Assembly: GCA_014379595.1 (NCBI GenBank)
Contig: JACMLM010000011.1
Coordinates: 29,062 to 93,061 of the forward strand
DNA from: Anaerolineales bacterium
Lineage (GTDB): Bacteria > Chloroflexota > Anaerolineae > Anaerolineales > Villigracilaceae
Direction of reading: 5' to 3'
Length of the DNA stretch: 64,000 nt
The notes under the pieces were generated by a model. It had not been told where the DNA came from and made no database searches. It saw nothing but the letters and a program-made list of their open reading frames with translations. Numbering within the stretch: the first letter of the stretch is position 1; the number at the start of each line of letters is the position of its first letter. The translations under genes and the position numbers were made by a program. Shown one piece after another: positions 13,950 through 38,220 of this stretch.

Positions 13950-13961
13950 GTTAACGTTTAA
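13950..13961. promoter_or_regulatory. Candidate operator upstream of ABC importer 2 (GTTAACGTTTAA)
   Basis: Shares the CGTTAAC core with 4686..4701 and sits at a similar distance from the SBP start codon. Confidence 0.2.
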
Positions 13962-14183: not shown

Positions 14184-14209
14184 CATAAGGAAAAATAATT
14201 ATTCCAAAT

Positions 14210-14245
14210 AGAAAATACAGATTTCAATCTGGAATAATTATTTAA
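14210..14245 (+). other. Possible fourth, strongly AT-drifted PfpI 3'-end trace
   Basis: Shares the exact 12-mer CAGATTTCAATC with resident pfpI (nt 380-391). About 22 of 33 aligned positions match by hand. Confidence 0.3.
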
Positions 14246-14318
14246 CATTTTAAACAACTAGAGATGAGATAGTAAAACAAATTCACTATTAAAAATTTCA
14301 TTTCTACAAGGAGAAATA

Positions 14319-16182: not shown

Positions 16183-16243
16183 GGGTCACATCCTTTTTTA
16201 ATTTGTTAATGCGAGGAGCGATCTCCGCAACAATGACGATCCT

Positions 16244-19818: not shown

Positions 19819-20241
19819 CTAATTGTCTACTTTTATTTCAATCAATCGAACTGATTCGTTCATCGGGAAACGACTAAAATCAAAATCTATAACATATGTA
19901 AATAGGTTGCCATCCATGGAATATTCCCCCATCCAATCAGTTACATCTTGAGAAATTAAATTCCCGCGAACTTCGAACCTATAAGCTGCATAGCGGTACA
20001 CGCCATTTGGCGCTTCTTTATACTCTGTTGTCATACCTGCAGGAACATCACCAAAAGAAATACTATCGCTAGGAAATCTAACAACAAGATTAGTAATTGT
20101 GGTGGAGCCATTATTAATAATTCTCAAGAGGGCTGTCTTAGATACTTGAGTAGGTGTTATTTGAGCGGATTGTGAAGCACATCCACTTAAAATAAAAGAT
20201 AAAAATAAAGAACAAAATAGTTTATTAATTACTTTTTTCAT
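19819..20241 (-). CDS. Hypothetical lipoprotein
   Basis: Signal peptide with lipobox LSGC-A. ATGA overlap with the DeoR gene stop. No family recognised. Confidence 0.55.
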   Translation of the reverse strand: MKKVINKLFCSLFLSFILSGCASQSAQITPTQVSKTALLRIINNGSTTITNLVVRFPSDSISFGDVPAGMTTEYKEAPNGVYRYAAYRFEVRGNLISQDVTDWMGEYSMDGNLFTYVIDFDFSRFPMNESVRLIEIKVDN

Positions 20242-21014
20242 TTCGCAACCAAAACTTCCACATCATATTCCCCAATTTCTCTTTTCGCTTGCTTACTCAA
20301 TCCATTATCAGTGACCAATTTATTAATCTCATCAATCTCAGCTACGGGAAAGTTAGACACTGCGCCCCATTTGCTATGGTCAGCGACAACAATTACCTGA
20401 CCTTTTGTCCGTTCAATCATTCTTCGTACAACTTCTGCTTCGGGATTCGTTGGAACCGTACAACCATGTTTTAATGAGATTCCGTCTACGCCAAGAATCG
20501 CTTTGTTGGCAAAGACCAAGCCTAAATTGTCAAAAGCGAAGCGACCTGCCAAAGAGTTTGAACGACTCTGAAATTCGCCTCCAATCAAATGTAATTTAAA
20601 AACTGGTTCCGCAATATCAGTCAACACACTCATGTTGTTTGTATAAACCGTAATGCGCGGGTTCGGTGGAATATTTTTCAAAACTTGTGCGGCAGTAGAA
20701 CCACTGTTGACAAAAATAATATCACCTTCCTCAATCAGAGAAGCCGCAAGTTCACCGATAATTTTTTTCTCGTTTGGAAAGTTTTTGATGCGTTGTTGAA
20801 ATTCTTGATCAAACATCACACGTTGATTTAATATCGCCCCCCCGTGCGTTCTTTCCAAAATTCCTTTTTGCTCCAACCATTCCAAATCACGTCGTACTGT
20901 CGCTTCAGAAGTATCCAGCACATCCATTAAATCTACTGTACGCGCAATCTGATGGATCCCCAAATATTCTTGTATTTTTTCGCGACGTTGGGCTGGAATG
21001 AGGGGTTTTCCCAT
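20238..21014 (-). CDS. DeoR/GlpR family transcriptional regulator
   Basis: N-terminal wHTH (RREKIQEYL...SEATVRRDLEWLEQKG) plus a C-terminal sugar-phosphate-binding DeoR_C domain. The track start at 21050 is possible, but Met-13 (21014) fits family length. Confidence 0.8.
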   Translation of the reverse strand: MGKPLIPAQRREKIQEYLGIHQIARTVDLMDVLDTSEATVRRDLEWLEQKGILERTHGGAILNQRVMFDQEFQQRIKNFPNEKKIIGELAASLIEEGDIIFVNSGSTAAQVLKNIPPNPRITVYTNNMSVLTDIAEPVFKLHLIGGEFQSRSNSLAGRFAFDNLGLVFANKAILGVDGISLKHGCTVPTNPEAEVVRRMIERTKGQVIVVADHSKWGAVSNFPVAEIDEINKLVTDNGLSKQAKREIGEYDVEVLVAK

Positions 21015-21067
21015 GTGAAGGATTATATAAGTATTTGAAGGAATTTGCAAGTTTTTGACATTTTGCT

Positions 21068-21079: not shown

Positions 21080-21889
21080 ATGCCAAAAATTGTAAAAGAT
21101 CTAATGCACCCAGGCGTAATGACCTGCAAGCCAACAGCTACTTTGGGACAAGTGGCTGTCTTGCTTAACCAGCACAAAATCCACGCTTTGTTTGTAACCG
21201 ATCGTGATGGTCGTATTATAGGTGTCATTTCAGATTTTGACTTAATGGCTGGCGAATGGCTCTCCTCGGACTCTGAAAGCTTAACCACCATGCGAAAATT
21301 AACAGCTGCGGATCTTATGTCGCAGCCAGTTGATTCTATTGAAACAAACATTTCCCTTGCTGACGCAGTAGACCTTTTCATTGAAAAAAAGGTAAGCCGC
21401 TTGCTAGTCACTGAAAATGAAAAGCCTGTGGGCATCCTTTCGCTTTCAGATTTTATTGCCAGTATCGCAAGTGAAATCAAATCAAAACGTGACACGGTCG
21501 GAGATGTAATGTCTGATGCCATTTTAGTTTGTCGTGGCAAAACTTCTGTTTCGTCTGCCGCACGTGCAATGACATCTGCTGGCTGGCGTTCAGTGTTAGT
21601 AGTGGATGCAAAAGGAAAAATTCTTGGCGTGGTCAGTGGGCATGACTTGCTTCAATTTGTAAAAGAAGGCGTTGGAGAAAAACTAATTGTCCGCGATGTG
21701 ATGCACCCTGCTTTGACAATTGACATCAATGCCAGCTTACGAGAAGCCGCAGATATGATGATTAAGAATCATTATCACCGACTCGTTGTCGTTGATAAAA
21801 ACGATCCAGATGCATTTCCTCTAGGTGCAATCTCTACATTTGACATTGTTGCAGAAATGTCAAAACCAGATTCGGTTTGGCAGAAGTAA
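21080..21889 (+). CDS. CBS domain-containing protein (four CBS repeats, two Bateman modules)
   Basis: Four repeats of the CBS pattern (VMT..ATLGQVAVLL..H..HALFV.D..GR.IGVIS..DL). No other domain. Confidence 0.8.
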   Translation: MPKIVKDLMHPGVMTCKPTATLGQVAVLLNQHKIHALFVTDRDGRIIGVISDFDLMAGEWLSSDSESLTTMRKLTAADLMSQPVDSIETNISLADAVDLFIEKKVSRLLVTENEKPVGILSLSDFIASIASEIKSKRDTVGDVMSDAILVCRGKTSVSSAARAMTSAGWRSVLVVDAKGKILGVVSGHDLLQFVKEGVGEKLIVRDVMHPALTIDINASLREAADMMIKNHYHRLVVVDKNDPDAFPLGAISTFDIVAEMSKPDSVWQK

Positions 21890-21992: not shown

Positions 21993-24425
21993 ATGTCAGA
22001 TTTTCCAACACAGGCGCAAGTCGTCATCATCGGTGGAGGTGTAGGCGGATGCAGTATTGCTTATCATCTAACAAAATTAGGTTGGAAAGATGTTGTCATC
22101 GTTGAGAAGCACGAATTGACATCAGGCTCTACCTGGCATTCCGCTGGGCTCGTTGGTCAGATGCGTTCAGATGCGAATTTGACTCGTATGATGCACTACA
22201 GCACAGACTTATACCGAAGTCTCAAAGCTGAAACAGGACAAGATACTTCATGGCGTGAAGTTGGCGGAATTCGTTTGGCATGTTCAGCAGAAAGAATGGA
22301 AGAAACAAAAAGATTAGTGGGGATGGCTCGTTCTTTCGGTGTGCCGATGGAGTTGATCTCGCCAAAGGAAGCACAGGATATGTTTCCAATCATGTCTTTA
22401 GATGGCGTGCTTGGTGCAGCGTACACACCCAACGATGGAAGCATTGACCCTACTGGCTTGACCAATGCACTTGCTATCGGGGCAAAGAGTCGCGGGGCAA
22501 AGATATTTACAAATACTCTTGTCGAAAAAATAAATTTAAAAGATGGTCGTGTCCATGAAGTAGTGACGGATAAAGGGACGATCAAGACTGAGATCGTGGT
22601 CAATGCCTCAGGTATGTGGGGACGCGAAACAGGAAAAATGGTCGGGTTGAATCTACCAGTGATCCCAATGGCTCATCTTTATATTATGACCAAGCCTATC
22701 GAAGGTGTGACGAATAAATTCCCAAATCTGCGCGACCCTGATCTATTAGTTTATTGGCGTGAAGAAGTTGGCGGGTTTATTACAGGTGGCTATGAACGTC
22801 AGCCCGCAACTTTTGGGATGAACGGTATTCCAAAAGATTTTAAATTTCAACTGCTACCTCCAGATTGGGAACGCTTTACCCCATTGATGGAAAATTCTAT
22901 TCGACGCGTGCCTGCGATTGAAAATGCTGAAGTCAAAATGTTATTGAACGGCCCAGAAGGCTTCACACCCGATGGTGAATTTTTATTAGGGCCAACCACT
23001 GTCAAAGGGTTTTGGGTAGCGTGTGCCTTCTGTGCCCATGGACTTGCTGGCGCAGGCGGCATGGGCAAAGTAATGGCAGAGTGGATCGTAGATGGAAGCC
23101 CTGAATGGGATATGTGGCGACTCGATGTGCGCCGCTTTGGTCCGAACTACAACAGCCTGGAATATGCCACGGCGCGGACGTTTGAAACTTATACACAATA
23201 TTATGACATTCATTATCCTGGCGAAGAAAGAATGTCGAAGCGCAATGTTCGTACCTCGCCCACTTTTTATCGTCTGCGTGATTTGGGTTGTACATTCGGT
23301 GAAAAGATGGGATGGGAACGCCCGAACTGGTTTAGAAAATATGAAGAGCTTGCTACACATGGTCATGAGCCAAGAGGCTGGTCGCGCCATAATTGGTCTC
23401 GCGCCATTGGACATGAACATTTGATGACCCGCGAGAATGCAGGCCTCTTCGATGAAACATCATTTAATAAGTTTGAAGTGCGTGGAACTGGCGCTTTGAA
23501 TTTCCTGAATCATGTTTGTGCCAATGAAATGGATCAACCCATTGGCTCGATGACATATACACAATGTCTCAACAAACGTGGCGGCATCGAATGTGATTTC
23601 ACAGTTAATCGCCTTGCAGAGAATCGTTTCTTCATTGTTACTGGAACTGCGTTTGGTCAACACGATATGTCGTGGCTGTCATTGAACATGCCTGAAGATG
23701 GCACAGTGACCATCGAAGACGTCAGCTCTAATTATGCCTGTCTCGGCATGTGGGGACCAAAAGCACGCACCATCCTCGAAAAAGTAACTATGGATGATGT
23801 CTCGAATGATGGCTTTCCATATATGACTTCAAAGCGAATGAACGTGGGTGACGTACCAGTGCTCTCTTCGCGCGTGACTTATGTTGGCGAGTTGGGCTGG
23901 GAGTTTTACTGCCCAATGGAATACGGCTTGCGACTCTGGGATACGCTTTGGGAAGCGGGTCAATCGGAAGGCCTGGTAGCGGGCGGTTACAAAGCCATTG
24001 ATACTTTACGCATCGAGAAGGGTTATCGTTATTGGAGCGGCGAGATTTCCCCAGACTACACTCCTTATGAAGCAGGTCTTGGATTCGCAGTCAAATTGAA
24101 TAAAGAAGCTTTTATTGGCAAAGATGCTTTAGTGAAACAAAAAGCAGAAGGCATTAATAATAAACTTTGCACAATTACTTTAAATGATGACCGCACCATT
24201 GTGATTGGAAAAGAGCCTATCCGCGTTGGCGATCAACTCGTGGGTTGGGTGGCTTCGGGTGGATTTGGTTACTCGGTCAACAAGTCTATCGCTTACGCAT
24301 ATCTCCCAATGGAATATGCAAAGGTTGGCACAAAACTAGAAGTTGAATGTTTTGGTGAACAGGTTGGTGCTGAAGTTGTGCAGGCAGTATTATGGGATGC
24401 CAAAGGTGAGAGAATTCGTCAGTAA
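21993..24425 (+). CDS. FAD-dependent oxidoreductase fused to a GcvT-type aminomethyltransferase domain (dimethylglycine/sarcosine dehydrogenase family), copy 2
   Basis: VVIIGGGVGGCSIAYHL..VVIVEK. 810 aa. C-terminal TYVGELGWEFY. Paralog of 17355..19784. Confidence 0.85.
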   Translation: MSDFPTQAQVVIIGGGVGGCSIAYHLTKLGWKDVVIVEKHELTSGSTWHSAGLVGQMRSDANLTRMMHYSTDLYRSLKAETGQDTSWREVGGIRLACSAERMEETKRLVGMARSFGVPMELISPKEAQDMFPIMSLDGVLGAAYTPNDGSIDPTGLTNALAIGAKSRGAKIFTNTLVEKINLKDGRVHEVVTDKGTIKTEIVVNASGMWGRETGKMVGLNLPVIPMAHLYIMTKPIEGVTNKFPNLRDPDLLVYWREEVGGFITGGYERQPATFGMNGIPKDFKFQLLPPDWERFTPLMENSIRRVPAIENAEVKMLLNGPEGFTPDGEFLLGPTTVKGFWVACAFCAHGLAGAGGMGKVMAEWIVDGSPEWDMWRLDVRRFGPNYNSLEYATARTFETYTQYYDIHYPGEERMSKRNVRTSPTFYRLRDLGCTFGEKMGWERPNWFRKYEELATHGHEPRGWSRHNWSRAIGHEHLMTRENAGLFDETSFNKFEVRGTGALNFLNHVCANEMDQPIGSMTYTQCLNKRGGIECDFTVNRLAENRFFIVTGTAFGQHDMSWLSLNMPEDGTVTIEDVSSNYACLGMWGPKARTILEKVTMDDVSNDGFPYMTSKRMNVGDVPVLSSRVTYVGELGWEFYCPMEYGLRLWDTLWEAGQSEGLVAGGYKAIDTLRIEKGYRYWSGEISPDYTPYEAGLGFAVKLNKEAFIGKDALVKQKAEGINNKLCTITLNDDRTIVIGKEPIRVGDQLVGWVASGGFGYSVNKSIAYAYLPMEYAKVGTKLEVECFGEQVGAEVVQAVLWDAKGERIRQ

Positions 24426-24573: not shown

Positions 24574-25509
24574 ATGACCACACTTGCAATTGATAAGGCA
24601 ATTGATAAAGTTCCGTTTCTCGCTGATTCAAAGAATATCAAAAAGATTCCATTAAGCGGTGGGATCACAAATCTGAATTTCAAAATTGAAGCAGATGGAA
24701 GAGCGTATGTGATTCGCTTAGCTGGCGAAGGTACTGAGCAACTTGGCATCAAACGTGATGTGGAATATGCGGCAAACAAAGCGGCTGGTGATTTGGGCAT
24801 TGCCCCGGAGGTTGTATTTTTTATTGAGCCTGAGAATTATATTGTGACTCGTTTTATCACTGGAAAACCGATCCCACCTGACGTGATCAAACAACCCGAC
24901 TATCTTGCGCGGGTTGCAAAAAAGTTACGCCTCTTTCACATGCGCGGACCAAAATTAAACGGCGAGTTCAATGTCTTCCGCCGTGTGGAAATGCTGGAGA
25001 AGATTTCAAGAAAAAATAACGCCAAATTCCCGCATGATTGGGATTGGATCATGCAAAAGATGAATGAAGTTAAAAAGGCATTGGCAAAAGACCCGTACAC
25101 CCCAACACCCACTCATAATGACTTGTTGAATTTAAACTGGCTGGAGGAGGAAGTAGCTGGTGATATCGGCGAGATCCGCTTGTTGGATTGGGAATACGCA
25201 GGCATGGGCGACATCTTCTTTGACCTTGCTAATTTTTCACATCATCATCGTTTGAATGAAGAGCAAGTTGATAACTTGTTGTATGAATATTTCGGTGAAG
25301 TGACAGATAAACAATACGCTCGCTTGCGTTTGATGTGGCCGATGTCTGAATTACATGAGTCCATGTGGGGCACAACGCAGACAGGTATTTCCAAACTGGA
25401 AGAGGATTTTCAGGGTTATGCAGATTTATGGTTTGCCCGCTTCCGTCAGCATGTGACAGATTATCGCTGGGAAGAATGGTTGAAGGATGTTGGGAAGAAG
25501 AGAAAATAG
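24574..25509 (+). CDS. Choline/ethanolamine kinase family protein (LicA-like, APH fold)
   Basis: Brenner motif HNDLLNLNWL and choline-kinase motif LLDWEYAGMGDIFFDLANF. Confidence 0.8.
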   Translation: MTTLAIDKAIDKVPFLADSKNIKKIPLSGGITNLNFKIEADGRAYVIRLAGEGTEQLGIKRDVEYAANKAAGDLGIAPEVVFFIEPENYIVTRFITGKPIPPDVIKQPDYLARVAKKLRLFHMRGPKLNGEFNVFRRVEMLEKISRKNNAKFPHDWDWIMQKMNEVKKALAKDPYTPTPTHNDLLNLNWLEEEVAGDIGEIRLLDWEYAGMGDIFFDLANFSHHHRLNEEQVDNLLYEYFGEVTDKQYARLRLMWPMSELHESMWGTTQTGISKLEEDFQGYADLWFARFRQHVTDYRWEEWLKDVGKKRK

Positions 25510-25606
25510 ATAGGTATACAAGTAAACAGGTAGGCAGGTACATGTATATATATTTACCTGTCTACTTCAATATTAAATTAACCAGAAGATAAAATAAGGA
25601 GACTCT

Positions 25607-26482
25607 ATGTCAATCGTAAATGCAAAAGAAATCATGTTCCCAGCGCTGGAAAACGGATATGCCATTGGGGCATTCAATGTCACAGATCTGCTTCAGTTTG
25701 AAGCCGTGATTGATGCTGCTGTCGAAAAAAAGGCGCCTGTAATCGTTCAAACATCTGTCAAACCATCTCAATTCCATACTCCTGAATTAATGGTGGCGAT
25801 CTTTAAAACTCTTGCATCATCCGCGCCAATCCCTGTCTGCCTGCACCTTGATCATTGCACCACCATTGAGTATTGCAATACCTGTGCTGATGCTGGCTAT
25901 ACCAATATCATGATCGATGCATCCAAACATTCATTTGAAGAAAATATTCGCCAGACAAAAGCAGTCGTGGATTATGCTCACAGCGTTGGTAATATCTCAG
26001 TTGAGGGTGAACTCGGAACTGTCGGCGGCGTTGAAGACCAGATCAAGGTCGCAGAAGACGAAGCGCAACTAGCTAACCCAGAAAAATGTGTTGAATTCGT
26101 TGAACGTACTGGTGTGGATATTTTCGGCCCAGCTATTGGAACAGCACATGGCGTATATAAAACTAAAAATCCAAAAGTTGATTTCGAGCGCATGGCTACG
26201 ATCAACAAGATGTTGAACGGCAACGGTATCAAGTGTCCGCTTGTGGTGCATGGCGGAACGGGCCTGCCAGATGATTACATTGTCAAATTGTTGGAAGCTG
26301 GCGGCGCAAAATTCAACGTATCCACTGAGTTAAAGCATACATTGATCGATGCAAAGTTTGAATATCTTTCTTCTCATCGTGATGAATATGATCCCGGCAA
26401 ACTGGATGTCTTCGCCCGCGATGCCACCCGCAAAGCTGTTATGCACTGGATCGATAAGTTGGGCTCCGCGGGTAAGGCGTAA
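25607..26482 (+). CDS. Class II fructose/tagatose-bisphosphate aldolase family protein
   Basis: Class II aldolase zinc/catalytic regions: GAFNV, LHLDH, GELG, AIGTAHG, VVHGGTG. Confidence 0.85.
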   Translation: MSIVNAKEIMFPALENGYAIGAFNVTDLLQFEAVIDAAVEKKAPVIVQTSVKPSQFHTPELMVAIFKTLASSAPIPVCLHLDHCTTIEYCNTCADAGYTNIMIDASKHSFEENIRQTKAVVDYAHSVGNISVEGELGTVGGVEDQIKVAEDEAQLANPEKCVEFVERTGVDIFGPAIGTAHGVYKTKNPKVDFERMATINKMLNGNGIKCPLVVHGGTGLPDDYIVKLLEAGGAKFNVSTELKHTLIDAKFEYLSSHRDEYDPGKLDVFARDATRKAVMHWIDKLGSAGKA

Positions 26483-26533
26483 GTGCAAGAGAGCAGTGAA
26501 CAGGTATCAGTTTTCAGTAATCAGTAAAACCTA

Positions 26534-26668
26534 GTGGTCGAGTAGCTCTGAGCGGTTTTTGCGAAGAGCGTATCGAGACCAACAAGTAAATAGTTACAAA
26601 AAATAACTTGAAAACGTGTGGTCTCGATACATGTCTCGCCAAAGAACGGCTCGACATTACTCGACCAC
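26534..26668. repeat. Long imperfect inverted repeat (about 50-nt arms, AT-rich 37-nt centre) inside the operon
   Basis: Perfect outer pair GTGGTCGAGTA (26534-44) / TACTCGACCAC (26658-68). Perfect inner pair GTATCGAGACCA (26570-81) / TGGTCTCGATAC (26619-30). Intervening arm segments are about 75% complementary by hand. Confidence 0.75.
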
Positions 26669-26699
26669 CGAAGTAATAAATTTTTTTATGGAGAACAAA

Positions 26700-27806
26700 A
26701 TGAAGAATATCGACGAATATTATGCCCCATGGGTTAAAGGCATTCCCATGTACATCTCGGAGCATATTGAAAAAGCATGGAGAGATCCATCATTGCACCG
26801 CATGATGTCTAACGAAAATCCACTGCCCCCTTCCGAGAAGGTTTTGGAGGCGATGTTCAAATATGCCAAGATGACCAACCGCTACCCCGATCAGGGACTT
26901 GTTGTACGCAGCAAGATTGCGGAGATCAATAATGTAGATGGTCCGCAGAACGTGATGATCGGAAACGGTTCCAGCGAAGTGTATGACAACATCTTCCGCA
27001 TGTTCATTGAACCCGGCGATGAAGTGATCCAGCACACACCCTGCTTCGGCATTTACGGTCTGCGCGGAAGTTTACTTGGCGCAAAGATGATCTCCGTGCC
27101 AATGATCTACAAGGACCATTTGCTGCAATACGATCACGAAGGATTGATGAAAGCAGTCACAGACAAGACTAAGATCATCGTGATCCCCAACCCCAATAAC
27201 CCAAGCGGCAACTTTATGGATCCGAAACACTTCGTGCCATTTGCAGAATTGGGCATCCCGTTAATAGTGGATGAGGCCTATATCGAATATGCAGGTCTGG
27301 GCATGTCACAGGTGCAATTAACTAAAAAGTATAAGAACGTACTCATCACCCGTACGCTCTCCAAAGCTTATGGTTTAGCAGGTATGCGCTTCGGTTACAC
27401 CATTGGTCATGAGGATGTAATCAAGCAAATTGCCGGTTCACTCCTCCCTTGGAACGTGGGCACCATCCCGATGTGGGCAGCGCTCGCAGCCTTTGAAGAT
27501 CCCGAGGGACTTGCAGAACGCGTCAAGTTTAATAACGATGCAGTTTCATTTATTTCTGAATCATTGAGTGTGATTCCCGGGTTCCATGTGATGCCCTCCA
27601 AAGCCAATTACATCCTCTTCGATTGTGGTGACACCGGCAAGACAGGCGCGGAAGTACTTGCTTACGCTGAGACCAAAGGCATAATCCTACGCGGTGAAAG
27701 CAAGAAGTACGGCTCCGATGGCTGGTTCCGCGTGACCATCGGATCGAAAGAAGAGAACGAACTCTTCGTCAACACCGTGCTTGAGTTTTTTGGGGTAAAT
27801 AAATAA
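26700..27806 (+). CDS. HisC/CobD-subfamily class I/II PLP-dependent aminotransferase
   Basis: SNENPLPPS, YPD, GNGSSE, NPNNPSGN, VDEAYIEY and RTLSKAYGLAGMRFGY motifs. The start is set at 26700 (GGAGA SD 5 nt upstream). The track start 26616 lies inside the inverted repeat. Confidence 0.8.
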   Translation: MKNIDEYYAPWVKGIPMYISEHIEKAWRDPSLHRMMSNENPLPPSEKVLEAMFKYAKMTNRYPDQGLVVRSKIAEINNVDGPQNVMIGNGSSEVYDNIFRMFIEPGDEVIQHTPCFGIYGLRGSLLGAKMISVPMIYKDHLLQYDHEGLMKAVTDKTKIIVIPNPNNPSGNFMDPKHFVPFAELGIPLIVDEAYIEYAGLGMSQVQLTKKYKNVLITRTLSKAYGLAGMRFGYTIGHEDVIKQIAGSLLPWNVGTIPMWAALAAFEDPEGLAERVKFNNDAVSFISESLSVIPGFHVMPSKANYILFDCGDTGKTGAEVLAYAETKGIILRGESKKYGSDGWFRVTIGSKEENELFVNTVLEFFGVNK

Positions 27807-27900
27807 AAAACCTTTAACCACGAAGGACACAAAGAGCACTAAGGAAAACCTTTTAAGAACTCCCCTTTGTGTCCTTCGTGTCCTTGGTGTTTAATTTTTT
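27807..27900. repeat. Palindromic intergenic element built from CACNAAGG units, copy 2 (terminator-like)
   Basis: Perfect 16-bp stem CACGAAGGACACAAAG (27819-34) / CTTTGTGTCCTTCGTG (27865-80), followed by a T-run. Starts immediately after the aminotransferase stop. Confidence 0.75.
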
Positions 27901-27914
27901 GAACTGGAGTTAAC

Positions 27915-28673
27915 ATGTCAAAAATAAAAGCAGTATTCTTTGATCAGGACGGCGTGATCATTGATACCGAACGGGATGGTCATCGTGTTTCGTTCAATAT
28001 GACCTTCAAGGAATTCGGTTTCACTGATGAATGGAGCGTTGAGTATTATCATGAACTACTCCAGATCGCAGGCGGCAAGGAACGCATGAAACAACATTGG
28101 AAGACCAAAGGGTTTTCCAAACCGATGACAGAAGAGGAAATTGATAATCTCGTTAAGGAAATGCATAAGCGTAAGACTGCCTTGTTCGTGGAACTGATCG
28201 AGACAGGCAAACTTCCGCTGCGTCCGGGCATTCATCGGTTTATGAAAGAGGCGATGGATGCAGGTTTGAAAATCGCGATCTGCACCACATCTAATGAGCA
28301 GGCGGCCAAAGCGATCACCGAAAAAGTTTTGTCTGATATCAAATTTGATCTTGTGCTTGCTGGTGATGTGGTTCAAAAGAAGAAACCTGATCCCGAAATT
28401 TATAATCTTGCACTTTCCAAACTTGGTCTTCAACCTGATGAAGCATTCGTGGTGGAAGATTCCAAAAACGGACTCACCGCTGCCAAAGCCGCGGAACTGA
28501 AAACCATTGTCACTACCAATCACTACACTGAAACTGAGGATGTGAGCAAAGGTGATGTGATCGTTTCCTGCCTCGGCGATGCAGATGGTGAAAAAGCCGA
28601 ACTTCGCAAAGGTGAAATCGCTGAATTCGATGGCGTAGTGCATGTGAATCAAGTGATGGAGTTGTTTGGATAA
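27915..28673 (+). CDS. HAD-IA phosphatase of the CbbY type
   Basis: FFDQDGVIIDTERDGHRVSFN..GGKERM..LPLRPG..GDVVQKKKPDPEIYNLA..VVEDSKNGLTAAKAA aligns block for block with plant/bacterial CbbY as I recall those sequences. Confidence 0.75.
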   Translation: MSKIKAVFFDQDGVIIDTERDGHRVSFNMTFKEFGFTDEWSVEYYHELLQIAGGKERMKQHWKTKGFSKPMTEEEIDNLVKEMHKRKTALFVELIETGKLPLRPGIHRFMKEAMDAGLKIAICTTSNEQAAKAITEKVLSDIKFDLVLAGDVVQKKKPDPEIYNLALSKLGLQPDEAFVVEDSKNGLTAAKAAELKTIVTTNHYTETEDVSKGDVIVSCLGDADGEKAELRKGEIAEFDGVVHVNQVMELFG

Positions 28674-28882
28674 TGTCCGTATTTTGTTAACAAAACAAAC
28701 TCAAAGATGTGCCGATTCGGACATCTGAGCCGTACCCTTTATACTTTCCGAGTGTTTTGGAATATAAGTGTAAAGGGGTACCCCAGCAGTAGGAGGCCGT
28801 ATATTGCCAATACAGTGTTTGCTCTACGTCATAAGTTCAGGTTCTTGATGTCAAATTAATACACACAAGGAGAATTACGAAT

Positions 28883-30448
28883 ATGGCTAAAAGTACAGAC
28901 CAAGATAAGAAAGTCTTGCATAATTTGGGATACGCTCAAGAACTTTCCCGTCGCATGAGCGGTTTTTCGAATTTCGCAATTTCATTTTCAATTATATGTA
29001 TTCTTGCAGGTGGCATATCATCGTTTCCTGCTGCTTTCAATTCTACAGGTGGTGGCGGTGCTTTTATTGGATGGCTGGTCGGTGGATTTTTCTCGCTGAT
29101 GGTCGCATTGAGTATGGGACAAATCGCCTCTGCCTACCCCACGGCTGGCGGCTTGTACCATTGGGCTTCTATCCTCGCTGGAAAATTCTGGGGTTGGTTT
29201 GCCGCATGGTTTAACCTACTTGGTTTGCTTTTTGTTGTTGCCTCAGTAGATGTATTTTTGTATGTCGTGTTCTTCAAAGACCTGTTACTTGGTGCAACAC
29301 TCGGTATAGACACATCATCCTTCACAATTTGGCATCAACACGCATTTGTGATTGTTGCCTTGGTAACGCAAGGGTTGCTCAACCACTACGGTATTGGCAT
29401 TACCACCAAAGTCACTGACCTGAGCGGTTACTTGATTTTAGCACTGACGGTTATCTTCATCATCGCTTTGTTTGCCTTCTCACCTGTTGCACTTGATTTC
29501 TCACGTTTGGTCACATTTTCTAATTTGACTGGTGTAGATGGTCCAGGTGGAGGCGTAATTCCAATTGTTGCCCCCAGCACATTTGCGGCTTTCTTCTTCG
29601 GCTTGATTTATGTGATGTATACCATTACAGGTTTTGATGCTTCTGGTCACACCTCTGAAGAAACTCATGATGCCCAAGTCAATGTACCAAAAGGTATGTG
29701 GACTTCCGTATTTTATTCATGGATATTTGGTCTCGTGATGGTAGCCGCATTTGTATTAACCATGCCCAGCATTGAAGAAGGTGCCGCCGCAGGTTTTGGT
29801 TCATTCTTCTATATGTGGAGCGCTTCTCTAATGCCTGCCTGGCTTAAGATAGCGCTTGCAGTAGGCTTTGTGATTGTGAACTACATTTGTGCATTGGCAG
29901 GTCTTACCTCCACTTCACGCATGATGTTTGCCTTCGCACGTGATGGTGGTTTACCAGCATCCAAACTCCTTTCACACGTCAGCACACAATATCGCACACC
30001 CACTTATGCCATCTGGACTGGCGTTGTATTAGCATTCATCACAACCTTAACAGGAATCATCGGTGTTGCACTTGGTTTACAAGGTGTAGATATCTTCCTC
30101 GTGCTTGCTACTGGCTGTGCAGTATTTTTGTATATTTCTTATGCAATACCTGTCATTGCTGGTTTCTTTGCCGAAGGAAAGACTTGGACCACAAAAGGTC
30201 CGTTTAACCTTGGCGGATTATCCAAACCAATCGCGCTTATTAGTGGTCTTGGTGTATTGCTTTTGTCCACTACAGGTTTCTTCCCACCCAATGTCCCTGT
30301 ATTCTATTTGACAATTGGCATGATTATCATTTTGCCAATTCTATGGGTTGCAGGTATCAACAAAACATTTGAAGGTGTTCCCACCGGTGACAAGATCCGC
30401 GAACGCCAGAAGATGATCGCTGAGATCGAAGCCAAATACAAAGATTAG
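28883..30448 (+). CDS. APC superfamily permease (amino acid / amino-alcohol transporter-like)
   Basis: 521 aa with about 12 predicted TM segments. APC-type N-terminus (LGYAQELSRRMSGFSNFAISFSIICILAGG). Good SD. Confidence 0.75.
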   Translation: MAKSTDQDKKVLHNLGYAQELSRRMSGFSNFAISFSIICILAGGISSFPAAFNSTGGGGAFIGWLVGGFFSLMVALSMGQIASAYPTAGGLYHWASILAGKFWGWFAAWFNLLGLLFVVASVDVFLYVVFFKDLLLGATLGIDTSSFTIWHQHAFVIVALVTQGLLNHYGIGITTKVTDLSGYLILALTVIFIIALFAFSPVALDFSRLVTFSNLTGVDGPGGGVIPIVAPSTFAAFFFGLIYVMYTITGFDASGHTSEETHDAQVNVPKGMWTSVFYSWIFGLVMVAAFVLTMPSIEEGAAAGFGSFFYMWSASLMPAWLKIALAVGFVIVNYICALAGLTSTSRMMFAFARDGGLPASKLLSHVSTQYRTPTYAIWTGVVLAFITTLTGIIGVALGLQGVDIFLVLATGCAVFLYISYAIPVIAGFFAEGKTWTTKGPFNLGGLSKPIALISGLGVLLLSTTGFFPPNVPVFYLTIGMIIILPILWVAGINKTFEGVPTGDKIRERQKMIAEIEAKYKD

Positions 30449-30477
30449 CCTTGATGCTTTGAAAGTTATATAATATA

Positions 30478-30510
30478 AAAGCGGTATCTTTTTTAAGATA
30501 CCGCTTTTAT
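30478..30510 (+). terminator. Intrinsic terminator after the permease gene
   Basis: AAAGCGGTATCTT-tttt-AAGATACCGCTTT followed by TAT-TC. 13-bp stem. Confidence 0.7.
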
Positions 30511-30537
30511 TCTTCTTTTATGATAAGAGGACGTCTT

Positions 30538-32004
30538 ATGAAATATCTACTTGGCATTGATCAAGGTACTACGCAAACAACAGCTGTCATCGTAAATGAA
30601 TATGGCGAGATGATCGAAAAGAATTCTGCACAATTGCCTGCACAGTTTCCACAGGCAGGCTGGGTGGAGCAGAATCCAAAAGATATTATTCAAACAGTAA
30701 AAGACGCTTGTAAACCTTTGCTCGATAAATATGATATTTCAGCAGTTGGGTTTGACAATCAAGGCGAGACATTTATTGTTTGGGACAAGGATACGGGCGA
30801 GCCTGTGACTCCCGCCATTGTTTGGCAGGATACGAGAGGCGAATCAGTCTGTAAAGCACTCGCCTCTTCTCTTGACCCGAACCTGCTTCGCCAAAAAACG
30901 GGACTCCTACTCGACAGTTATTTCTCCGCGCCAAAACTCAAGTGGGTATTTGAGAACAATCCCGAGATTCGCAAAAAAGCACATGCAGGCAAATTAAAAT
31001 TTGGTACAACTGAGACATGGGTCATTTGGTCTCTAACAAAAGGTCAACTACACATCACAGACCCATCCACTGCTTCGCGAACGCTCTTATTTGACATGAA
31101 TACCTTTGAGTGGGATGAAGACCTATTGAAATTATTTGATGTTCCAAGAAGTATGTTGCCCGAAGTAAAACCGTCCGCTGGATATATCGGCGACATTGAT
31201 TTTGGCAATGGAAAGCCATTACCCCTACATGCTTTATTGGTAGATCAGCAAGCCGCATTGTTTGGTCAGGCCTGTTTCAACACAGGGGAAATGAAGTGCT
31301 CGTTCGGCACAGGCAGCTTTCTATTGATGAATATTGGAGATAAGCCGAAACTCTCCAATAATGGATTGCTCACAACTGTGGGATGGAATTTCAACGGCCA
31401 TACCGCTTACGCTTTTGATGGCGGCATTTTTGTCACGGGTTCAGCAGTGCAATGGCTAAGAGATAATCTTAAGTTTATTCCGGACTCTGCATCTAGTAAT
31501 GAGTCTGCAAATAAATCCAAAGACAGCGGCGTTGTGGTTGTACCTGCTTTACAAGGACTCGCGGCCCCCCATTGGCGGACAGATGTGCGCGGCGCAATGT
31601 TTGGATTAAATCGCAGTACATCTTCCGATGATATTGTAAGAGGTACATTGGACGGGATCGCATGTCGTGTATATGAAGTGGTTACAGCCATGTCTCAAGA
31701 TGCAGGCAAAGCACCTCCGCATCTCAAGGTGGATGGTGGTCCGTCGGGGAATCCATATCTCATGCAAATGATCGCGGACTTGTTGAATCTCGAAGTACAA
31801 GTCTCAGCTGCTTTAGAAGCTACTGCAATTGGTATTGCTAATCTTGCTGGGGTTTCAGCACTTGGAACGAGCTTTGATGACTTGGCAAAGAATTGGAAAG
31901 CAGAGACGATCTACCAGCCCAAGATGAAGGAAGAAGAAAGAAGAAAGAAGTTAGAGCAATGGGGCAAAGCAGTTGAGGCTGTTAAGGCATATCATGGAAA
32001 GTAA
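30538..32004 (+). CDS. glpK: Glycerol kinase
   Basis: FGGY family with the GlpK N-terminus YLLGIDQGTTQTTAV and the GWVEQNP motif. The ATG at 30538 follows the AAGAGGA SD. The track start at 30520 is unlikely. Confidence 0.88.
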   Translation: MKYLLGIDQGTTQTTAVIVNEYGEMIEKNSAQLPAQFPQAGWVEQNPKDIIQTVKDACKPLLDKYDISAVGFDNQGETFIVWDKDTGEPVTPAIVWQDTRGESVCKALASSLDPNLLRQKTGLLLDSYFSAPKLKWVFENNPEIRKKAHAGKLKFGTTETWVIWSLTKGQLHITDPSTASRTLLFDMNTFEWDEDLLKLFDVPRSMLPEVKPSAGYIGDIDFGNGKPLPLHALLVDQQAALFGQACFNTGEMKCSFGTGSFLLMNIGDKPKLSNNGLLTTVGWNFNGHTAYAFDGGIFVTGSAVQWLRDNLKFIPDSASSNESANKSKDSGVVVVPALQGLAAPHWRTDVRGAMFGLNRSTSSDDIVRGTLDGIACRVYEVVTAMSQDAGKAPPHLKVDGGPSGNPYLMQMIADLLNLEVQVSAALEATAIGIANLAGVSALGTSFDDLAKNWKAETIYQPKMKEEERRKKLEQWGKAVEAVKAYHGK

Positions 32005-32106
32005 TGTCGTTGCGAGGAGGGCATTTGCTCTTCCCGACGAAGCAATCTCCCACGTTACATCGGAGATTGCTTCGGGCGTAGAACAAGAACGCCCTCGCAA
32101 TGACAT
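32003..32106. repeat. Compound palindromic element of the GTCATTGCGAGG family
   Basis: Outer arms ATGTCGTTGCGAGGAGGGC / GCCCTCGCAATGACAT. Inner perfect arms CGAAGCAATCTCC / GGAGATTGCTTCG. Fills the glpK-to-next-gene gap exactly. Confidence 0.75.
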
Positions 32107-32107
32107 A

Positions 32108-34507
32108 GTGTATGACGTCGCCATCATTGGCGCAGGAGCAGTGGGTTCTGCTATTGCTCGAGAACTTTCTCGTTATCAATTAAAGATCGCTTTAATCGAA
32201 TCAAATTCAGATGTAGGGATGGGCACCTCCAAAGCCAGTACCGCGATTTGGCATACAGGCTATGACGCAAAACCTGGTTCATTGGAAGCAAAACTTCTCA
32301 AACGCAGTTATGCTTTGATGGATAAATACCTAGTCGAAGCAAATATTGCTCATGAAAGAATAGGCGGGTTATTAATTGCATGGAATCAAGAACAGCTCGA
32401 CACATTGCCTGCCTTATTAAAACAAGCGCATGGAAATGGAGATACGGATATAAGGATTATTTCAGCTGAAGAAATATATAAACGAGAACCAAATATCAAC
32501 AAAGGTGCATTAGGTGGATTATTTGTCCCAGGCGAAGGGATTCTTTGTACATTCTCTGTTCCGCTGGCTTTTGCATATCAGGCTGTATTAAATGATGTCA
32601 AATTGTTTTTAAATCAATCTGTTCAAGAAATAAAGCAAGCAGAAGATCGATGGATCATTGATAATGAAATTGAGGCGAGATATATCGTCAACGCGGCGGG
32701 ATTGTTTTCAGATGAGATCAATGCCCATTTTGGAAAGAGTAGTTTCAAGGTCACGCCGAGGCGCGGGCAGTTGATCATCTTCGATAAACTGGCACGTCCG
32801 CTGGTTAATCATGTGTTGTTGCCTGTGCCAACATCCAAAACAAAAGGTGTATTGATCTGCCCAACGGTATATGGAAATATTTTGCTCGGTCCAACTGCCG
32901 AAGATCTAAATGACAAAACAGCAACCGAAACAACGGAAGAGGGTTTGAACTTTATTTTGGGAAAGGCACGTGAGATTTTGCCATCATTGTTGGATGAAGA
33001 AGTGACAGCGACCTATTCTGGCTTGCGGGCTGCGACAGAACATAGTGACTATCAAATTGAAATGGATGCGACACTTCGTTACTTGTGTTTGGGTGGGATC
33101 CGTTCAACGGGCATTTCTGGCGCGATGGGCATTGCCGAATATGGCGTTGAGCTGTTGAAAGATGCTGGCTTGGATTTGAAATTAAAAGATGAATTCAAAT
33201 TAGTAAAAATGCCAGCCATCGGACAGGCAGATATTCGTCCGCATCAAAGCGCAGAGATGATCGCGCGAAATGCTTCGTATGCTGAGATGATTTGTCATTG
33301 TGAAAGAGCTTCTCGCGGCGAGTTGATCGATGCGATGAATGCACCGATCCCTGCGACATCCTTGGATGCCTTGCGTAGAAGAACACGCGCTTCACAAGGG
33401 CGATGTCAGGGATTTAATTGTCATGCGGCATTGGTAAAAACTCTGGAGAATCGTAGTAACGACTTCAGTCGTTATATAAGTGTAATTAAAAAAACGACTG
33501 ACCCAGAGGGCTTAGTCGCTGCTACAACTAGCGATGTGTTAATCATCGGAGCCGGACCTGCTGGGTTAAGCGCTGCGATTGAACTAAAGAAACAAGGCAT
33601 AAAAAATATTATGGTCGTTGACCGTGAACCCGAAGCAGGTGGAATGCCGCGTTTATGTCATCACACAGGTTTTGGGCGTGAAGATTTATGGCGTATGTGG
33701 TCAGGCCCAAAATATGCAAAATATTATCGTGATCTTGCAGAGAAGAAGAATGTGGATGTGCAAACATCTATAACTGTAATGGGCTGGGGAATTTCAGACT
33801 CGGGAAGTAGTGCGACGCACTCCATTAACTTCACATCTCCAAATGGACTTGGTGAAATTAATGCAAGCGTTGTTTTGCTGGCAACAGGCGTACGCGAAAG
33901 ACCGCGCTCTGCACGTTTAATCCCAGGAACTCGGCCGCAAGGGATTTATACAACTGGTTCATTGCAAAGGTTTGTTTATCAGGAAAAACTGCCCATAGGA
34001 AAACATGCTGTCATCATTGGTGCAGAGTTGGTGAGTCTCTCTGCATTGATGACACTCATGCACGCCGATGTAAAATGTGAAATGATGGTGACCGAAGAAA
34101 AGCATCATCAAATTGAGTTCCCATATATCGCGATGAAATGGGCAATAGCAGATATCATCACGCGCACGCCTATCATTACAGAGACAAAAATAACTAACAT
34201 CTTTGGCAAAAAACGTGTGGAAGGTATTGAGATCACTGATAAAAATGGAAAAACAAAATATGTAGAATGTGACACCGTGATCTTTACTGGCAATTGGATT
34301 CCTGAAAATGAACTTTCACGAACAGGCGGGTTGGAAATTAATCCCACCACACGCGGGCCTGTCATTGATAAAAGCTTCCATTCTACGGTCAGAGGCGTAT
34401 TTGTGGCAGGGAATCTAATTCGCGGTGTGGAAACTGCTGACCACTGTGCTTTGGAAGGAAAATGGGCTGCACAGGCAATCGCAAGTTATATTAAACAAGT
34501 GAGATGA
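32108..34507 (+). CDS. Glycerol-3-phosphate dehydrogenase-like FAD oxidoreductase (GlpA-type with BFD-like 2Fe-2S region) fused to a GlpB / pyridine-nucleotide-disulfide-oxidoreductase-like domain
   Basis: Two dinucleotide folds (DVAIIGAGAVGSAIA and DVLIIGAGPAGLSAA). Cys cluster CHCERASRGEL..RCQGFNC. The start is probably the GTG at 32108, because the 45 codons upstream in the track ORF are the repeat element. Confidence 0.7.
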   Translation: MYDVAIIGAGAVGSAIARELSRYQLKIALIESNSDVGMGTSKASTAIWHTGYDAKPGSLEAKLLKRSYALMDKYLVEANIAHERIGGLLIAWNQEQLDTLPALLKQAHGNGDTDIRIISAEEIYKREPNINKGALGGLFVPGEGILCTFSVPLAFAYQAVLNDVKLFLNQSVQEIKQAEDRWIIDNEIEARYIVNAAGLFSDEINAHFGKSSFKVTPRRGQLIIFDKLARPLVNHVLLPVPTSKTKGVLICPTVYGNILLGPTAEDLNDKTATETTEEGLNFILGKAREILPSLLDEEVTATYSGLRAATEHSDYQIEMDATLRYLCLGGIRSTGISGAMGIAEYGVELLKDAGLDLKLKDEFKLVKMPAIGQADIRPHQSAEMIARNASYAEMICHCERASRGELIDAMNAPIPATSLDALRRRTRASQGRCQGFNCHAALVKTLENRSNDFSRYISVIKKTTDPEGLVAATTSDVLIIGAGPAGLSAAIELKKQGIKNIMVVDREPEAGGMPRLCHHTGFGREDLWRMWSGPKYAKYYRDLAEKKNVDVQTSITVMGWGISDSGSSATHSINFTSPNGLGEINASVVLLATGVRERPRSARLIPGTRPQGIYTTGSLQRFVYQEKLPIGKHAVIIGAELVSLSALMTLMHADVKCEMMVTEEKHHQIEFPYIAMKWAIADIITRTPIITETKITNIFGKKRVEGIEITDKNGKTKYVECDTVIFTGNWIPENELSRTGGLEINPTTRGPVIDKSFHSTVRGVFVAGNLIRGVETADHCALEGKWAAQAIASYIKQVR

Positions 34508-34510
34508 ATA

Positions 34511-35044
34511 TTGGCAGATGAATTGCTCGACATTGTAAATGACGAAGATATCGTAATAGGTCAAGAAATGCGATCTACCGTCCATCAACTAGGATTGCAG
34601 CATCGCGGCGTGCATGTTTTCCTGTTTACCCGGGACGGAAAAATGCTTATCCAAAAACGAAGTGCAGACCGTGCCGCATCTCCGTCCATGCTGGACTGCT
34701 CCGTATCAGAGCATGTTCAATCTGGAGAAAATTATCTGCAAGCGGCGACTCGTGGCTTGAAAGAAGAAATGGGACTAAGTGATATCGAGATCAAACCACT
34801 TGTCAAAATTAAGATGAATTATGGTGTCAACGATAATGAGATCAGTGTTTTATATGAAGGAATTGTTGACCCATCAACAGTGAAGTTCGACCCCGTTGAA
34901 ATCGAAGAAGTGACATATTACAGCTTGGAAGAAATACAGGAAATGACGAACAGGAAAGATGTCAAATTCTGCAGTTGGTTTGTGCAAATCTTGAATTGGT
35001 ATATGCAAAAGCCAGCGGAGTTAACTGTATTAAATACATATTGA
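34511..35044 (+). CDS. NUDIX hydrolase (IDI-like subfamily)
   Basis: Nudix box GENYLQAATRGLKEEMGL preceded by an IQKRS....P..LD.SVSEH layout. TTG start per the track. Confidence 0.7.
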   Translation: MADELLDIVNDEDIVIGQEMRSTVHQLGLQHRGVHVFLFTRDGKMLIQKRSADRAASPSMLDCSVSEHVQSGENYLQAATRGLKEEMGLSDIEIKPLVKIKMNYGVNDNEISVLYEGIVDPSTVKFDPVEIEEVTYYSLEEIQEMTNRKDVKFCSWFVQILNWYMQKPAELTVLNTY

Positions 35045-37558: not shown

Positions 37559-37560
37559 TC

Positions 37561-38190: not shown

Positions 38191-38220
38191 TTTATAAAAT
38201 AAATTCAAAGGAGAAGTATT

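Follow-up and report, generated by a model that had tools for sequence, protein, structure and literature searches.

In this paper, we describe a gene cluster in a 64,000-nt window of DNA (the whole stretch that was analysed) from an Anaerolineales bacterium of the Chloroflexota (assembly GCA_014379595.1, contig JACMLM010000011.1, positions 29,062-93,061), which we propose to serve the catabolic entry of ethanolamine-type amino alcohols into the pentose-phosphate pool without the participation of ethanolamine ammonia-lyase. The cluster encodes a choline/ethanolamine-kinase-family kinase, a class II aldolase, a pyridoxal phosphate (PLP)-dependent aminotransferase of the HisC/CobD family (hereafter AT) and a CbbY-type phosphatase. 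The proposal is based on the identities of these genes and on their co-occurrence, and we hold it to be about as likely as not. A preliminary description of the same DNA had suggested such a route from C2 and C3 units to a C5 sugar phosphate. Circumstantial support for it has come from the recurrence of the aldolase, AT and phosphatase trio in at least three lineages, from a variant with a transaldolase-like (TAL-like) gene, from the recurrence of a glycerol 3-phosphate (G3P) dehydrogenase in one of these lineages (L095), and from the non-canonical nature of AT.

In the proposed pathway, an APC-superfamily permease would take up the amino alcohol, while in other lineages the phosphoester would probably be imported directly, via a GlpT/PgtP-type or PhnS2-type transporter. 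The kinase would O-phosphorylate the amino alcohol to phosphoethanolamine or an N-methyl form of it, and a dimethylglycine dehydrogenase (DMGDH)-like folate-dependent demethylase would strip any N-methyl groups, before or after phosphorylation, so that the amine can be transaminated. AT would then convert phosphoethanolamine into 2-phosphoglycolaldehyde, and the class II aldolase would join the latter to dihydroxyacetone phosphate (DHAP) to form xylulose 1,5-bisphosphate (XuBP), with GlpK and G3P dehydrogenase, where present, providing DHAP from glycerol. The CbbY-type phosphatase would finally remove the DHAP-derived 1-phosphate of XuBP to give xylulose 5-phosphate. In sister lineages, a TAL-like or fructose-6-phosphate aldolase (FSA)-like enzyme, often accompanied by a transketolase, would add an unphosphorylated C3 unit and so replace the aldolase and phosphatase steps. 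From DHAP and glycolaldehyde phosphate, fructose 1,6-bisphosphate (FBP) aldolase is able to form XuBP, whose D-threo configuration is in accord with the specificity of CbbY. Whether the amino alcohol is ethanolamine, serinol or another compound, we infer from context. The parts of the pathway come from known families, whereas its logic and the role of XuBP would be new. Literature searches turned up neither a phosphoethanolamine transaminase nor a natural phosphoglycolaldehyde pathway, nor any connection between ethanolamine and xylulose phosphates; the preliminary description had likewise known of no pathway of this form.

Conservation and recurrence of the gene cluster

The best-matching homologues of the proteins of this region come from Anaerolineales and 'Candidatus Villigracilis' metagenome-assembled genomes. 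All eight genes that the preliminary description had placed on one strand at 24574-35044 with short gaps were found there, on the + strand and with intergenic gaps of 3-217 bp; the same-strand array begins further upstream, with the genes of a CBS protein and a DMGDH-like demethylase. The features of the cluster are as follows:

20238..21050, - strand: DeoR-family regulator (HTH_DeoR and DeoRC), divergent from the operon
21080..21889, + strand: four-CBS-domain protein (Pfam CBS, four copies), first gene of the + array
21993..24425, + strand: DMGDH-like 1, a folate-dependent N-demethylase of 810 aa (DAO, FAO_M, GCV_T and GCV_T_C)
24574..25509, + strand: choline/ethanolamine-kinase-family kinase (PF01633/PF01636)
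25607..26482, + strand: class II (type B) ketose-bisphosphate aldolase (PF01116, 283 bits)
26700..27806, + strand: AT, HisC/CobD-family PLP aminotransferase (PF00155), in an open reading frame (ORF) that opens at 26616
27915..28673, + strand: CbbY-type HAD-IA phosphatase, matching Arabidopsis CbbY (AtCbbY, 4UAV) and Rhodobacter CbbY (RsCbbY)
28883..30448, + strand: APC-superfamily permease (AA_permease_2; top model TIGR00907)
30475..30510, + strand: hairpin (perfect stem of 16 bp) with a T-run after it, in the gap that separates glpK from the permease gene
30520..32004, + strand: glycerol kinase GlpK (PRK00047, 571 bits against a cut-off of 498)
31973..34507, + strand: fused FAD/[2Fe-2S]/pyridine-nucleotide-disulphide oxidoreductase (DAO, Fer2_BFD and Pyr_redox_2)
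34511..35044, + strand: Nudix-fold protein (PF00293; nearest models IPP isomerase and YfcD, below cut-off)

Conservation within the order was counted in 80 species-representative genomes, the denominators being the loci with enough flanking sequence. The aldolase gene is located directly upstream of the AT gene in 77 of 77 genomes and the CbbY-like phosphatase gene directly downstream of it in 74 of 74, while the kinase is present in 68 of 69, DMGDH-like 1 in all 54, the CBS protein in 53 of 54 and the Nudix protein in 46 of 50; the DeoR regulator occupies the same position in 52 of 52. The APC permease (17/50), GlpK (16/50) and G3P dehydrogenase (15/50), on the other hand, form an optional inserted module, and the eight genes are not one fixed block as had been described. 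The core that is kept in nearly all relatives consists of the kinase, the aldolase, AT and the CbbY-like phosphatase, together with the upstream DeoR regulator, CBS protein and DMGDH-like 1. In 12 of 69 genomes a divergent TAL-like gene lies between the kinase and the aldolase. As the synteny extends into plainly unrelated genes, gene order within Anaerolineales proves little. We have also noted an unannotated protein of about 260-290 aa with a nucleotidyltransferase-like G-S...D-x-D motif and no family-model match (L009 2551-3339; L100 12716-13582). It is absent from the window, and 19 of 52 Anaerolineales clusters have it between DeoR and CBS; a homologue of 34% identity (E = 3e-43) directly follows the genes of AT and an FGGY kinase in an unrelated contig.

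Protein searches with AT and the kinase returned close Anaerolineales relatives only and hence no distant context. More distant AT contexts were therefore taken from a library of 50%-identity clusters and from a scan of metagenomes that used a diverse alignment, and about 60 canonical-HisC-like loci from the same scan served as the control set for neighbours and motifs. The following clusters were found (percentages are identities to the window proteins):

L095 (bacterium with Por-type secretion signals), AT 38%: split G3P dehydrogenase, GntR, aldolase (41%), CbbY-like HAD (47%), AT; also a GlpT/PgtP-type organophosphate antiporter (MFS) and a large secreted metallophosphoesterase
L182 (complete genome CP070652.1), AT 41%: AT, aldolase (65%), CbbY-like HAD (54%), MttB
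L004 (contig labelled Wirthbacteria), AT 76%: EamA, EamA, aldolase, small HAD, AT, CbbY-like HAD
L110, AT 59%: GntR, TAL-like, transketolase, APC permease, ChoK-like kinase (65%), AT
L104, AT 42%: ChoK-family kinase (independent), transketolase-like (divergent), GntR, TAL-like, alanine dehydrogenase, AT
L108, AT 39%: TAL-like, AT, transketolase
L102, AT 43%: PhnS2-type ABC transporter, GntR, TAL-like, AT, ETF beta and alpha, DMGDH-like (48%)
L105 (AT 43%) and L112 (AT 66%): TAL-like and AT; in L105 also an APC permease
L098, L100, L109, L115, L118 and L119, AT 32-36%: FGGY kinase (xylulokinase-like), and in some of them an APC permease or a RuBisCO-like protein

The trio of aldolase, AT and CbbY-like phosphatase thus recurs in at least three distant lineages and in three gene orders, and this shuffling argues for functional coupling rather than inherited synteny. 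The co-occurrence in relatives that the preliminary description had looked to is borne out by the Anaerolineales counts and, for the set without the kinase, by the trio in L095, L182 and L004. The G3P dehydrogenase of L095 is split into two proteins, which match the respective halves of the window fusion at 60% and 50% identity. The closest named relatives of L182 belong to Desulfobacterales/Thermodesulfobacteriota.

A second arrangement has a TAL-like gene next to AT (L102, L104, L105, L108, L110 and L112), and neither TAL-like nor class II aldolase neighbours were seen in the approximately 60 control loci. The TAL-like proteins, which are 400-420 aa long (L009 7741-8949; L110 3600-4859; L102 8756-9979), score far below the transaldolase cut-offs and keep the Schiff-base Lys, with a Gln aligned with the catalytic Glu; fructose-6-phosphate aldolase likewise has Gln at this position. 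They may represent a new aldolase/transaldolase specificity, and would be a second way of joining a C3 unit to the aldehyde phosphate. In the loci examined, a CbbY-like phosphatase adjoins AT only where an aldolase is also present. This is explained if the aldolase route leaves a surplus 1-phosphate, whereas a dihydroxyacetone unit and phosphoglycolaldehyde would give xylulose 5-phosphate directly, so that the TAL-type clusters, which lack the phosphatase, could do without it.

The proposed pathway also explains several other patterns among the neighbours. Recurring transketolase and xylulokinase-like genes are consistent with pentulose-phosphate chemistry, and recurring GlpK and G3P dehydrogenase genes with DHAP supply. 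APC permeases adjoin AT in L100, L105, L110 and L119, while the kinase is absent from clusters having organophosphate transporters, and AEP-type (2-aminoethylphosphonate-type) ABC transporters lie immediately upstream of AT in L092 and share a gene array with it in L102. The alanine dehydrogenase of L104 suggests that AT uses pyruvate as its amino acceptor there. Demethylation genes beside the AT clade, i.e. DMGDH in Anaerolineales, DMGDH with ETF in L102, MttB in L182, and MtmB with a corrinoid protein in L101, suggest that N-methylated ethanolamines, and possibly choline, are natural inputs; the demethylase genes beside the window cluster, which indicate such substrates, had been overlooked in the preliminary description.

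Several further observations concern these loci. In L095, a gene lying just upstream of the trio (6679-8109) encodes a protein of 476 aa that bears a twin-arginine-like signal and weakly resembles sulfoquinovose and L-arabinose isomerases. The MttB gene of L182 has an in-frame TAG at the canonical pyrrolysine position, and the adjacent CbbY-like gene also contains an in-frame TAG (12283-13038 and 13070-14560), which suggests pyrrolysine or read-through decoding that touches a gene other than a methyltransferase gene. In L098 (2688-3497) and L118 (from about 4298 onward), both high-GC contigs, a RuBisCO-like protein whose nearest models are MtnW and form III comes right after the pair of AT and xylulokinase-like genes, a combination that to our knowledge fits no known pathway of RuBisCO-like proteins.

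The aminotransferase, the phosphatase and the nature of the substrate

The assignment of AT to the HisC/CobD family is upheld. On TIGR01141, the HisC equivalog model, it scored 252.4 bits and did not reach the cut-off of 276.55. The true start of AT is Met29 (26700), as judged by alignment with its homologues. When aligned with E. coli HisC (1FG3), AT keeps the PLP Lys and both anion-binding Arg (in TLSKAYG, ILR and FRVTIG), but has Ser (GSSE in the window) in the place of Asp85, an imidazole contact in the E. coli enzyme. In all members of the AT clade this position is taken by S, T, M, L, A or C, while Asp or Asn (GS[DN][ED]) stands there in nearly all control loci. Furthermore, the motifs AW, R[ML]M.NE and GS[STMLAC]E are common to all members of the clade and PW to most of them, while the control loci mostly show RE.G., [IV]KLASNENP, GNGS[DN][ED] and PF. 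In the 50%-identity library, relatives at 38-68% identity amount to a handful of representatives, and those at or below 36% merge into the HisC bulk, the identity of AT to HisC-like sequences being 30-36%. No his genes were found near the AT clade in more than 100 loci; a paralogous hisC was likewise not seen in about 1.5 Mb of related loci, an amount that is uninformative on whole genomes. Judged by these sequence features, AT belongs to a separate clade, present in 386 species genomes of one collection, and is not a canonical HisC. We propose that it is a phosphoethanolamine:2-oxoacid transaminase.

These observations also bear on the view that the cluster is a set of housekeeping genes, with AT as HisC, the phosphatase as a histidinol-phosphate or general sugar phosphatase and the aldolase as glycolytic Fba, held together by inherited synteny and not by a shared pathway. 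Public annotations do name AT histidinol-phosphate transaminase, its identity of 76-93% across many Anaerolineales is like that of core genes, and the synteny there spans unrelated genes as well. But AT falls under the HisC cut-off and lacks Asp or Asn at the Asp85 position, no his gene occurs in the more than 100 clade loci, the trio is retained in shuffled order in distant lineages, the genes nearby are of a catabolic kind (regulators of the DeoR and GntR families, permeases, kinases and alanine dehydrogenase), and the phosphatase is of CbbY type. On the motif, cut-off and context evidence we reject this view as the principal explanation, and we consider it extremely improbable.

For the phosphatase, the sequences of the two solved enzymes in the PDB were used for comparison. 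It scored 214.8 bits to AtCbbY and 136.4 bits to RsCbbY, and is 48.7% and 40.0% identical to them, respectively, in line with its description as a close CbbY-type enzyme. The two validated XuBP phosphatases, AtCbbY and RsCbbY, are 42.0% identical, so that the window protein is no further in sequence from AtCbbY than RsCbbY is. As a signature we used the 89 positions at which the solved enzymes agree; the window protein keeps 68 of them (76%) and the L095 protein 64. The catalytic DxD motif of HAD enzymes is kept (FFDQDGV in the window; FDCDGV and FDVDGT in the solved enzymes), as are the CbbY cap motifs GGKER, H..KT and LRPG. We propose that this protein is a XuBP 1-phosphatase giving xylulose 5-phosphate. 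According to a review, CbbY orthologues were believed to be restricted to photosynthetic organisms, and validated CbbY strongly prefers XuBP to FBP and is a poor FBPase. As had been reported, the annotated ORFs of the window include no genes for RuBisCO or PRK and no eut genes; RuBisCO and PRK genes were also not found beside the trio in L095, L182 or the Anaerolineales loci, and the earlier suggestion that aldolase and phosphatase could be a relic of a cbb operon finds no support in the loci studied.

A number of points weigh against the proposed pathway. The nearest PDB match of AT is the aromatic aminotransferase 4r2n of M. tuberculosis, and the anion-binding Arg residues of AT cannot discriminate a phosphate ester from a carboxylate. 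We know of no characterised precedent in the HisC family for a terminal amine without a side chain. The closest characterised activity of the family other than that of HisC is the conversion of DHAP to serinol phosphate by Cj1437. The distant group of ATs with FGGY kinases (L098, L100, L109, L115, L118 and L119) has no adjacent aldolase and suits an amino-polyol substrate better, the kinase is missing from the clusters of L001, L004, L095 and L182, and much of the synteny in Anaerolineales reaches clearly unrelated housekeeping genes.

The main rival is a serinol route. In it, AT would catalyse the reversible conversion of serinol phosphate to DHAP, or of serinol to dihydroxyacetone; the kinase or the FGGY kinase would act on serinol; the aldolase and phosphatase would be a gluconeogenic FBP aldolase and an FBP 1-phosphatase; the TAL/FSA-like enzyme would use dihydroxyacetone; and glycerol would converge on DHAP. 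The FGGY kinases (glycerol/xylulose-kinase-like) and APC permeases beside the distant ATs of L100 and L119 form a self-sufficient three-gene module in agreement with it, the adjoining GlpK and G3P dehydrogenase fit a convergence on DHAP, and the Gln of the TAL-like proteins is also that of fructose-6-phosphate aldolase. On the other hand, DHAP is already a central metabolite and would need no dedicated C-C enzyme, yet AT of the window sub-clade always occurs with an aldolase or a TAL-like gene. Furthermore, the recurrent N-demethylases fit choline-type compounds, and we know of no N-methyl serinols among natural products; serinol itself is rare in nature, whereas the AT clade is found in several hundred species genomes. 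CbbY has some, if weak, FBPase activity, though the validated enzymes are poor FBPases, and a DHAP:serinol-phosphate transaminase of the HisC/CobD family has been characterised in Cj1437 (serinol review, PMC3222319). On balance we regard the serinol route as unlikely.

A related view keeps the logic of the pathway and assumes another phospho-amine as substrate, in which case the product would not be xylulose 5-phosphate. Candidates are 1-amino-2-propanol, 3-amino-1,2-propanediol, a 2-amino-1,3-diol (giving a ketose 1-phosphate that is cleaved to DHAP and an aldehyde) and a phospho-amino acid. Specificity cannot be read off sequences, the aldolases may work in the cleavage direction, the top curated model of the kinase (GntI) phosphorylates an N-hydroxy group, although the match is below cut-off, and the contexts of the distant relatives are mixed (a short-chain dehydrogenase (SDR) and a DAGK-like kinase beside AT in L101; the RuBisCO-like protein in L098 and L118). 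The close relationship to CbbY, however, indicates a xylulo-configured 1,5-bisphosphate, and the xylulokinase-like, transketolase and TAL-like neighbours indicate pentulose phosphate chemistry. Ethanolamine, choline and their phosphates are, moreover, by far the most abundant compounds that match. A different substrate is a possibility to be kept in mind, and we think it rather doubtful.

Lastly, AT might work in biosynthesis and aminate a sugar-phosphate fragment to phosphoethanolamine or serinol phosphate, destined for a head group of lipids or of the envelope, with the phosphatase freeing the amino alcohol. Cj1437 and Cj1435 would be precedents, EamA-type transporters flank the trio in L004, and outer AT relatives (33-35% identity; P0260 and P0263) are fused to a putative nucleotidyltransferase-like region, which would suit product activation. 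But the kinase and an uptake-type permease share the operon, alanine dehydrogenase adjoins AT in L104, the regulators are of catabolic type, and an enzyme of CbbY type is a ketose-bisphosphate phosphatase and not an amino-alcohol-phosphate phosphatase; in addition, making XuBP from xylulose 5-phosphate would require a kinase, not a phosphatase. A biosynthetic role therefore appears very unlikely to us. In P0260 and P0263, the region N-terminal to the HisC-like domain was assigned to the LicC/MobA type by eye. Their layout parallels that of the PntC-AEPT fusion of Treponema denticola, in which the aminotransferase family differs; the fusion (Tde1415) was considered as a precedent and set aside, its transaminase domain being PhnW/AGXT-like and not HisC-like, so that the analogy is one of architecture only.

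Other proteins of the cluster and the flanking genes

The kinase, which had been described as LicA-type, scored 69.6 bits on PF01633 (cut-off 29) and matches PDB 3dxq at 99 bits and LicA (4r77) at 62 bits. Among curated models, the kinase scores highest on that of the guanitoxin kinase GntI (235 bits, short of the cut-off), and AT gives 124 bits on the GntC model. Kinases and ATs of this sort may have been a source for the guanitoxin cluster. The aldolase had been called FBP/TBP-type, i.e. acting on FBP or tagatose 1,6-bisphosphate (TBP); its class II membership stands, as it passed the ketose-bisphosphate aldolase subfamily model TIGR00167 (251.8 bits, cut-off 215.6), whereas it fell below the FBA and TBP equivalog cut-offs (TIGR01859: 286.4 against 343). 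DMGDH-like 1 has the domain architecture of its family; its scores against rat DMGDH and Arthrobacter DMGO were 575 and 516 bits, respectively. The DeoR-family protein may regulate the cluster in response to sugar phosphates or organophosphates, and the four-CBS-domain protein may have a regulatory role.

In the optional module, GlpK misses the TIGR01311 cut-off (557.6 against 590.35). The fused oxidoreductase has type 2 G3P oxidase as its top model (258.7 against a cut-off of 460) and lies below all G3P oxidase and dehydrogenase cut-offs; it is a probable G3P dehydrogenase forming DHAP, and its start is likely the ATG at 31994. The hairpin at 30475-30510 is terminator- or attenuator-like. It ends 10 nt before the glpK ATG, which leaves no space for a glpK promoter downstream of it. 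Instead of being a simple terminator, it may therefore serve in attenuation or in RNA stability. An Rfam scan of the window for riboswitches and other RNA elements gave two tRNAs only. The earlier suggestion that the Nudix protein feeds in CDP-linked head groups finds no support. The nearest models of this protein are those given above, and its gene is as syntenic as the unrelated genes at 35105-39189, which encode a TIGR03960 B12-binding radical SAM protein, a 174-aa protein without family match, a DUF2344 protein and a PrsW protease. The TIGR03960, DUF2344 and PrsW genes, which are unrelated in function, are syntenic with the cluster across Anaerolineales and so illustrate how strongly gene order is conserved among these bacteria.

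On the other side of the cluster lies a divergent operon:

17355-19784, - strand: DMGDH-like 2
16244-17362, - strand: PfkB-family kinase
14746-16182, - strand: non-pyrrolysine MttB-family methyltransferase, with Leu at the pyrrolysine position

The genes of DMGDH-like 2 and the PfkB kinase adjoin DeoR in many related genomes, and we infer a possible link of the operon (14746-19784) to the pathway. Candidate substrates of these proteins are glycine betaine, choline-type compounds and trimethyl-AEP. Further away, at 520-13878 on the - strand, is a canonical AEP degradation set. Its PhnW (8678-9838) and PhnX (7844-8674) exceed their curated cut-offs, and it also includes an alkaline-phosphatase-superfamily protein (7026-7841) as well as two ABC transporter systems of AEP type. 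Between the two transporter sets lies a long-form pyruvate kinase of 634 aa (5033-6937, - strand; PRK14725, 831 bits). As AEP is the phosphonate analogue of phosphoethanolamine, the whole region appears to be dedicated to aminoethyl-phosph(on)ates.

If the parts are read jointly, the whole divergent supercluster could be one pathway for the complete assimilation of choline or phosphocholine. MttB and the two DMGDH-like enzymes would move the three methyl groups into the folate pool, and the resulting phosphoethanolamine would be converted to phosphoglycolaldehyde and joined to DHAP, which would make XuBP a true intermediate in heterotrophs. The CbbY of phototrophs would then share ancestry with, or have been recruited from, a catabolic XuBP phosphatase, and the same C2-phosphate assimilation would have a second form in the TAL-like/transketolase variant of Desulfobacterota-like and other lineages. 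We put this joint reading forward tentatively, as something that may be so but that we would not expect.

Relation to known systems and significance

The proposed pathway shares features with several known systems. With the XuBP phosphatases R. sphaeroides CbbY and Arabidopsis CbbYA, the window phosphatase has in common the HAD-IA family, 40-49% identity, the motifs and the proposed reaction from XuBP to xylulose 5-phosphate. In organisms with the Calvin-Benson-Bassham cycle, however, XuBP is a misfire product of RuBisCO, and CbbY, whose gene accompanies the cbb genes, serves in repair (review); here, the partners are an aldolase and AT, no RuBisCO occurs in the window or the clustered loci, and XuBP would be a mainstream intermediate. 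AT resembles HisC and Cj1437 in fold and family (PF00155), in the PLP Lys and both anion-binding Arg, and in the expected type of substrate, a 2-amino-1-phosphoalkanol, the likeness to Cj1437 being by description and not by sequence. It differs from HisC in the replacement at the Asp85 position, its own N-terminal motifs, a catabolic context and a proposed substrate without a side chain.

The PhnW-PhnX route for AEP, itself encoded in the window, also transaminates a 2-aminoethyl-phosph(on)ate to an aldehyde, and AEP-type transporters flank AT relatives. But PhnW is a class V enzyme, and phosphonatase hydrolyses the aldehyde to acetaldehyde and phosphate, whereas the aldehyde phosphate would here be extended by C-C bond formation with the phosphate retained. 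The same presumed substrate is used by the B12-dependent EutBC ammonia-lyase with its microcompartment and by the route of a kinase and a phospho-lyase of the AGXT2L1 type (AGXT2L1 being a phosphoethanolamine lyase), the latter of which also begins with O-phosphorylation. Both end in acetaldehyde; the proposed route would keep both carbons and the phosphate and end in a pentose phosphate. Genes of EutBC and of microcompartment shells are absent from the annotated ORFs of the window, as is a class III (Aminotran_3) phospho-lyase beside the kinase, the PLP enzyme of the block being of class I/II (PF00155).

Sulfoquinovose catabolism is known in parallel aldolase, transaldolase and transketolase variants, and the present clusters are similar in that one substrate-derived unit is seemingly handled by interchangeable aldolase or transaldolase/transketolase modules across lineages. 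The sulfoquinovose pathways cleave a C6 sulfosugar, whereas the modules here would start from a C2 aldehyde phosphate and extend it to a C5 sugar phosphate.

Among the nitrogen-containing head groups of lipids in sediments, sludge and guts, few are as abundant as ethanolamine, choline and their phosphodiesters. If the proposed pathway is correct, it would be a third bacterial route for ethanolamine, one that needs no B12 and works in anaerobes, and it would be relevant to the filamentous Anaerolineales that are common in wastewater plants. It would also define, within the HisC family, a phosphoethanolamine transaminase that is at present annotated as HisC in hundreds of genomes, and would offer natural parts for synthetic assimilation of C2 compounds of the glycolaldehyde type. 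Finally, it would give CbbY-type phosphatases their first physiological role outside RuBisCO repair, with XuBP as a normal metabolite.

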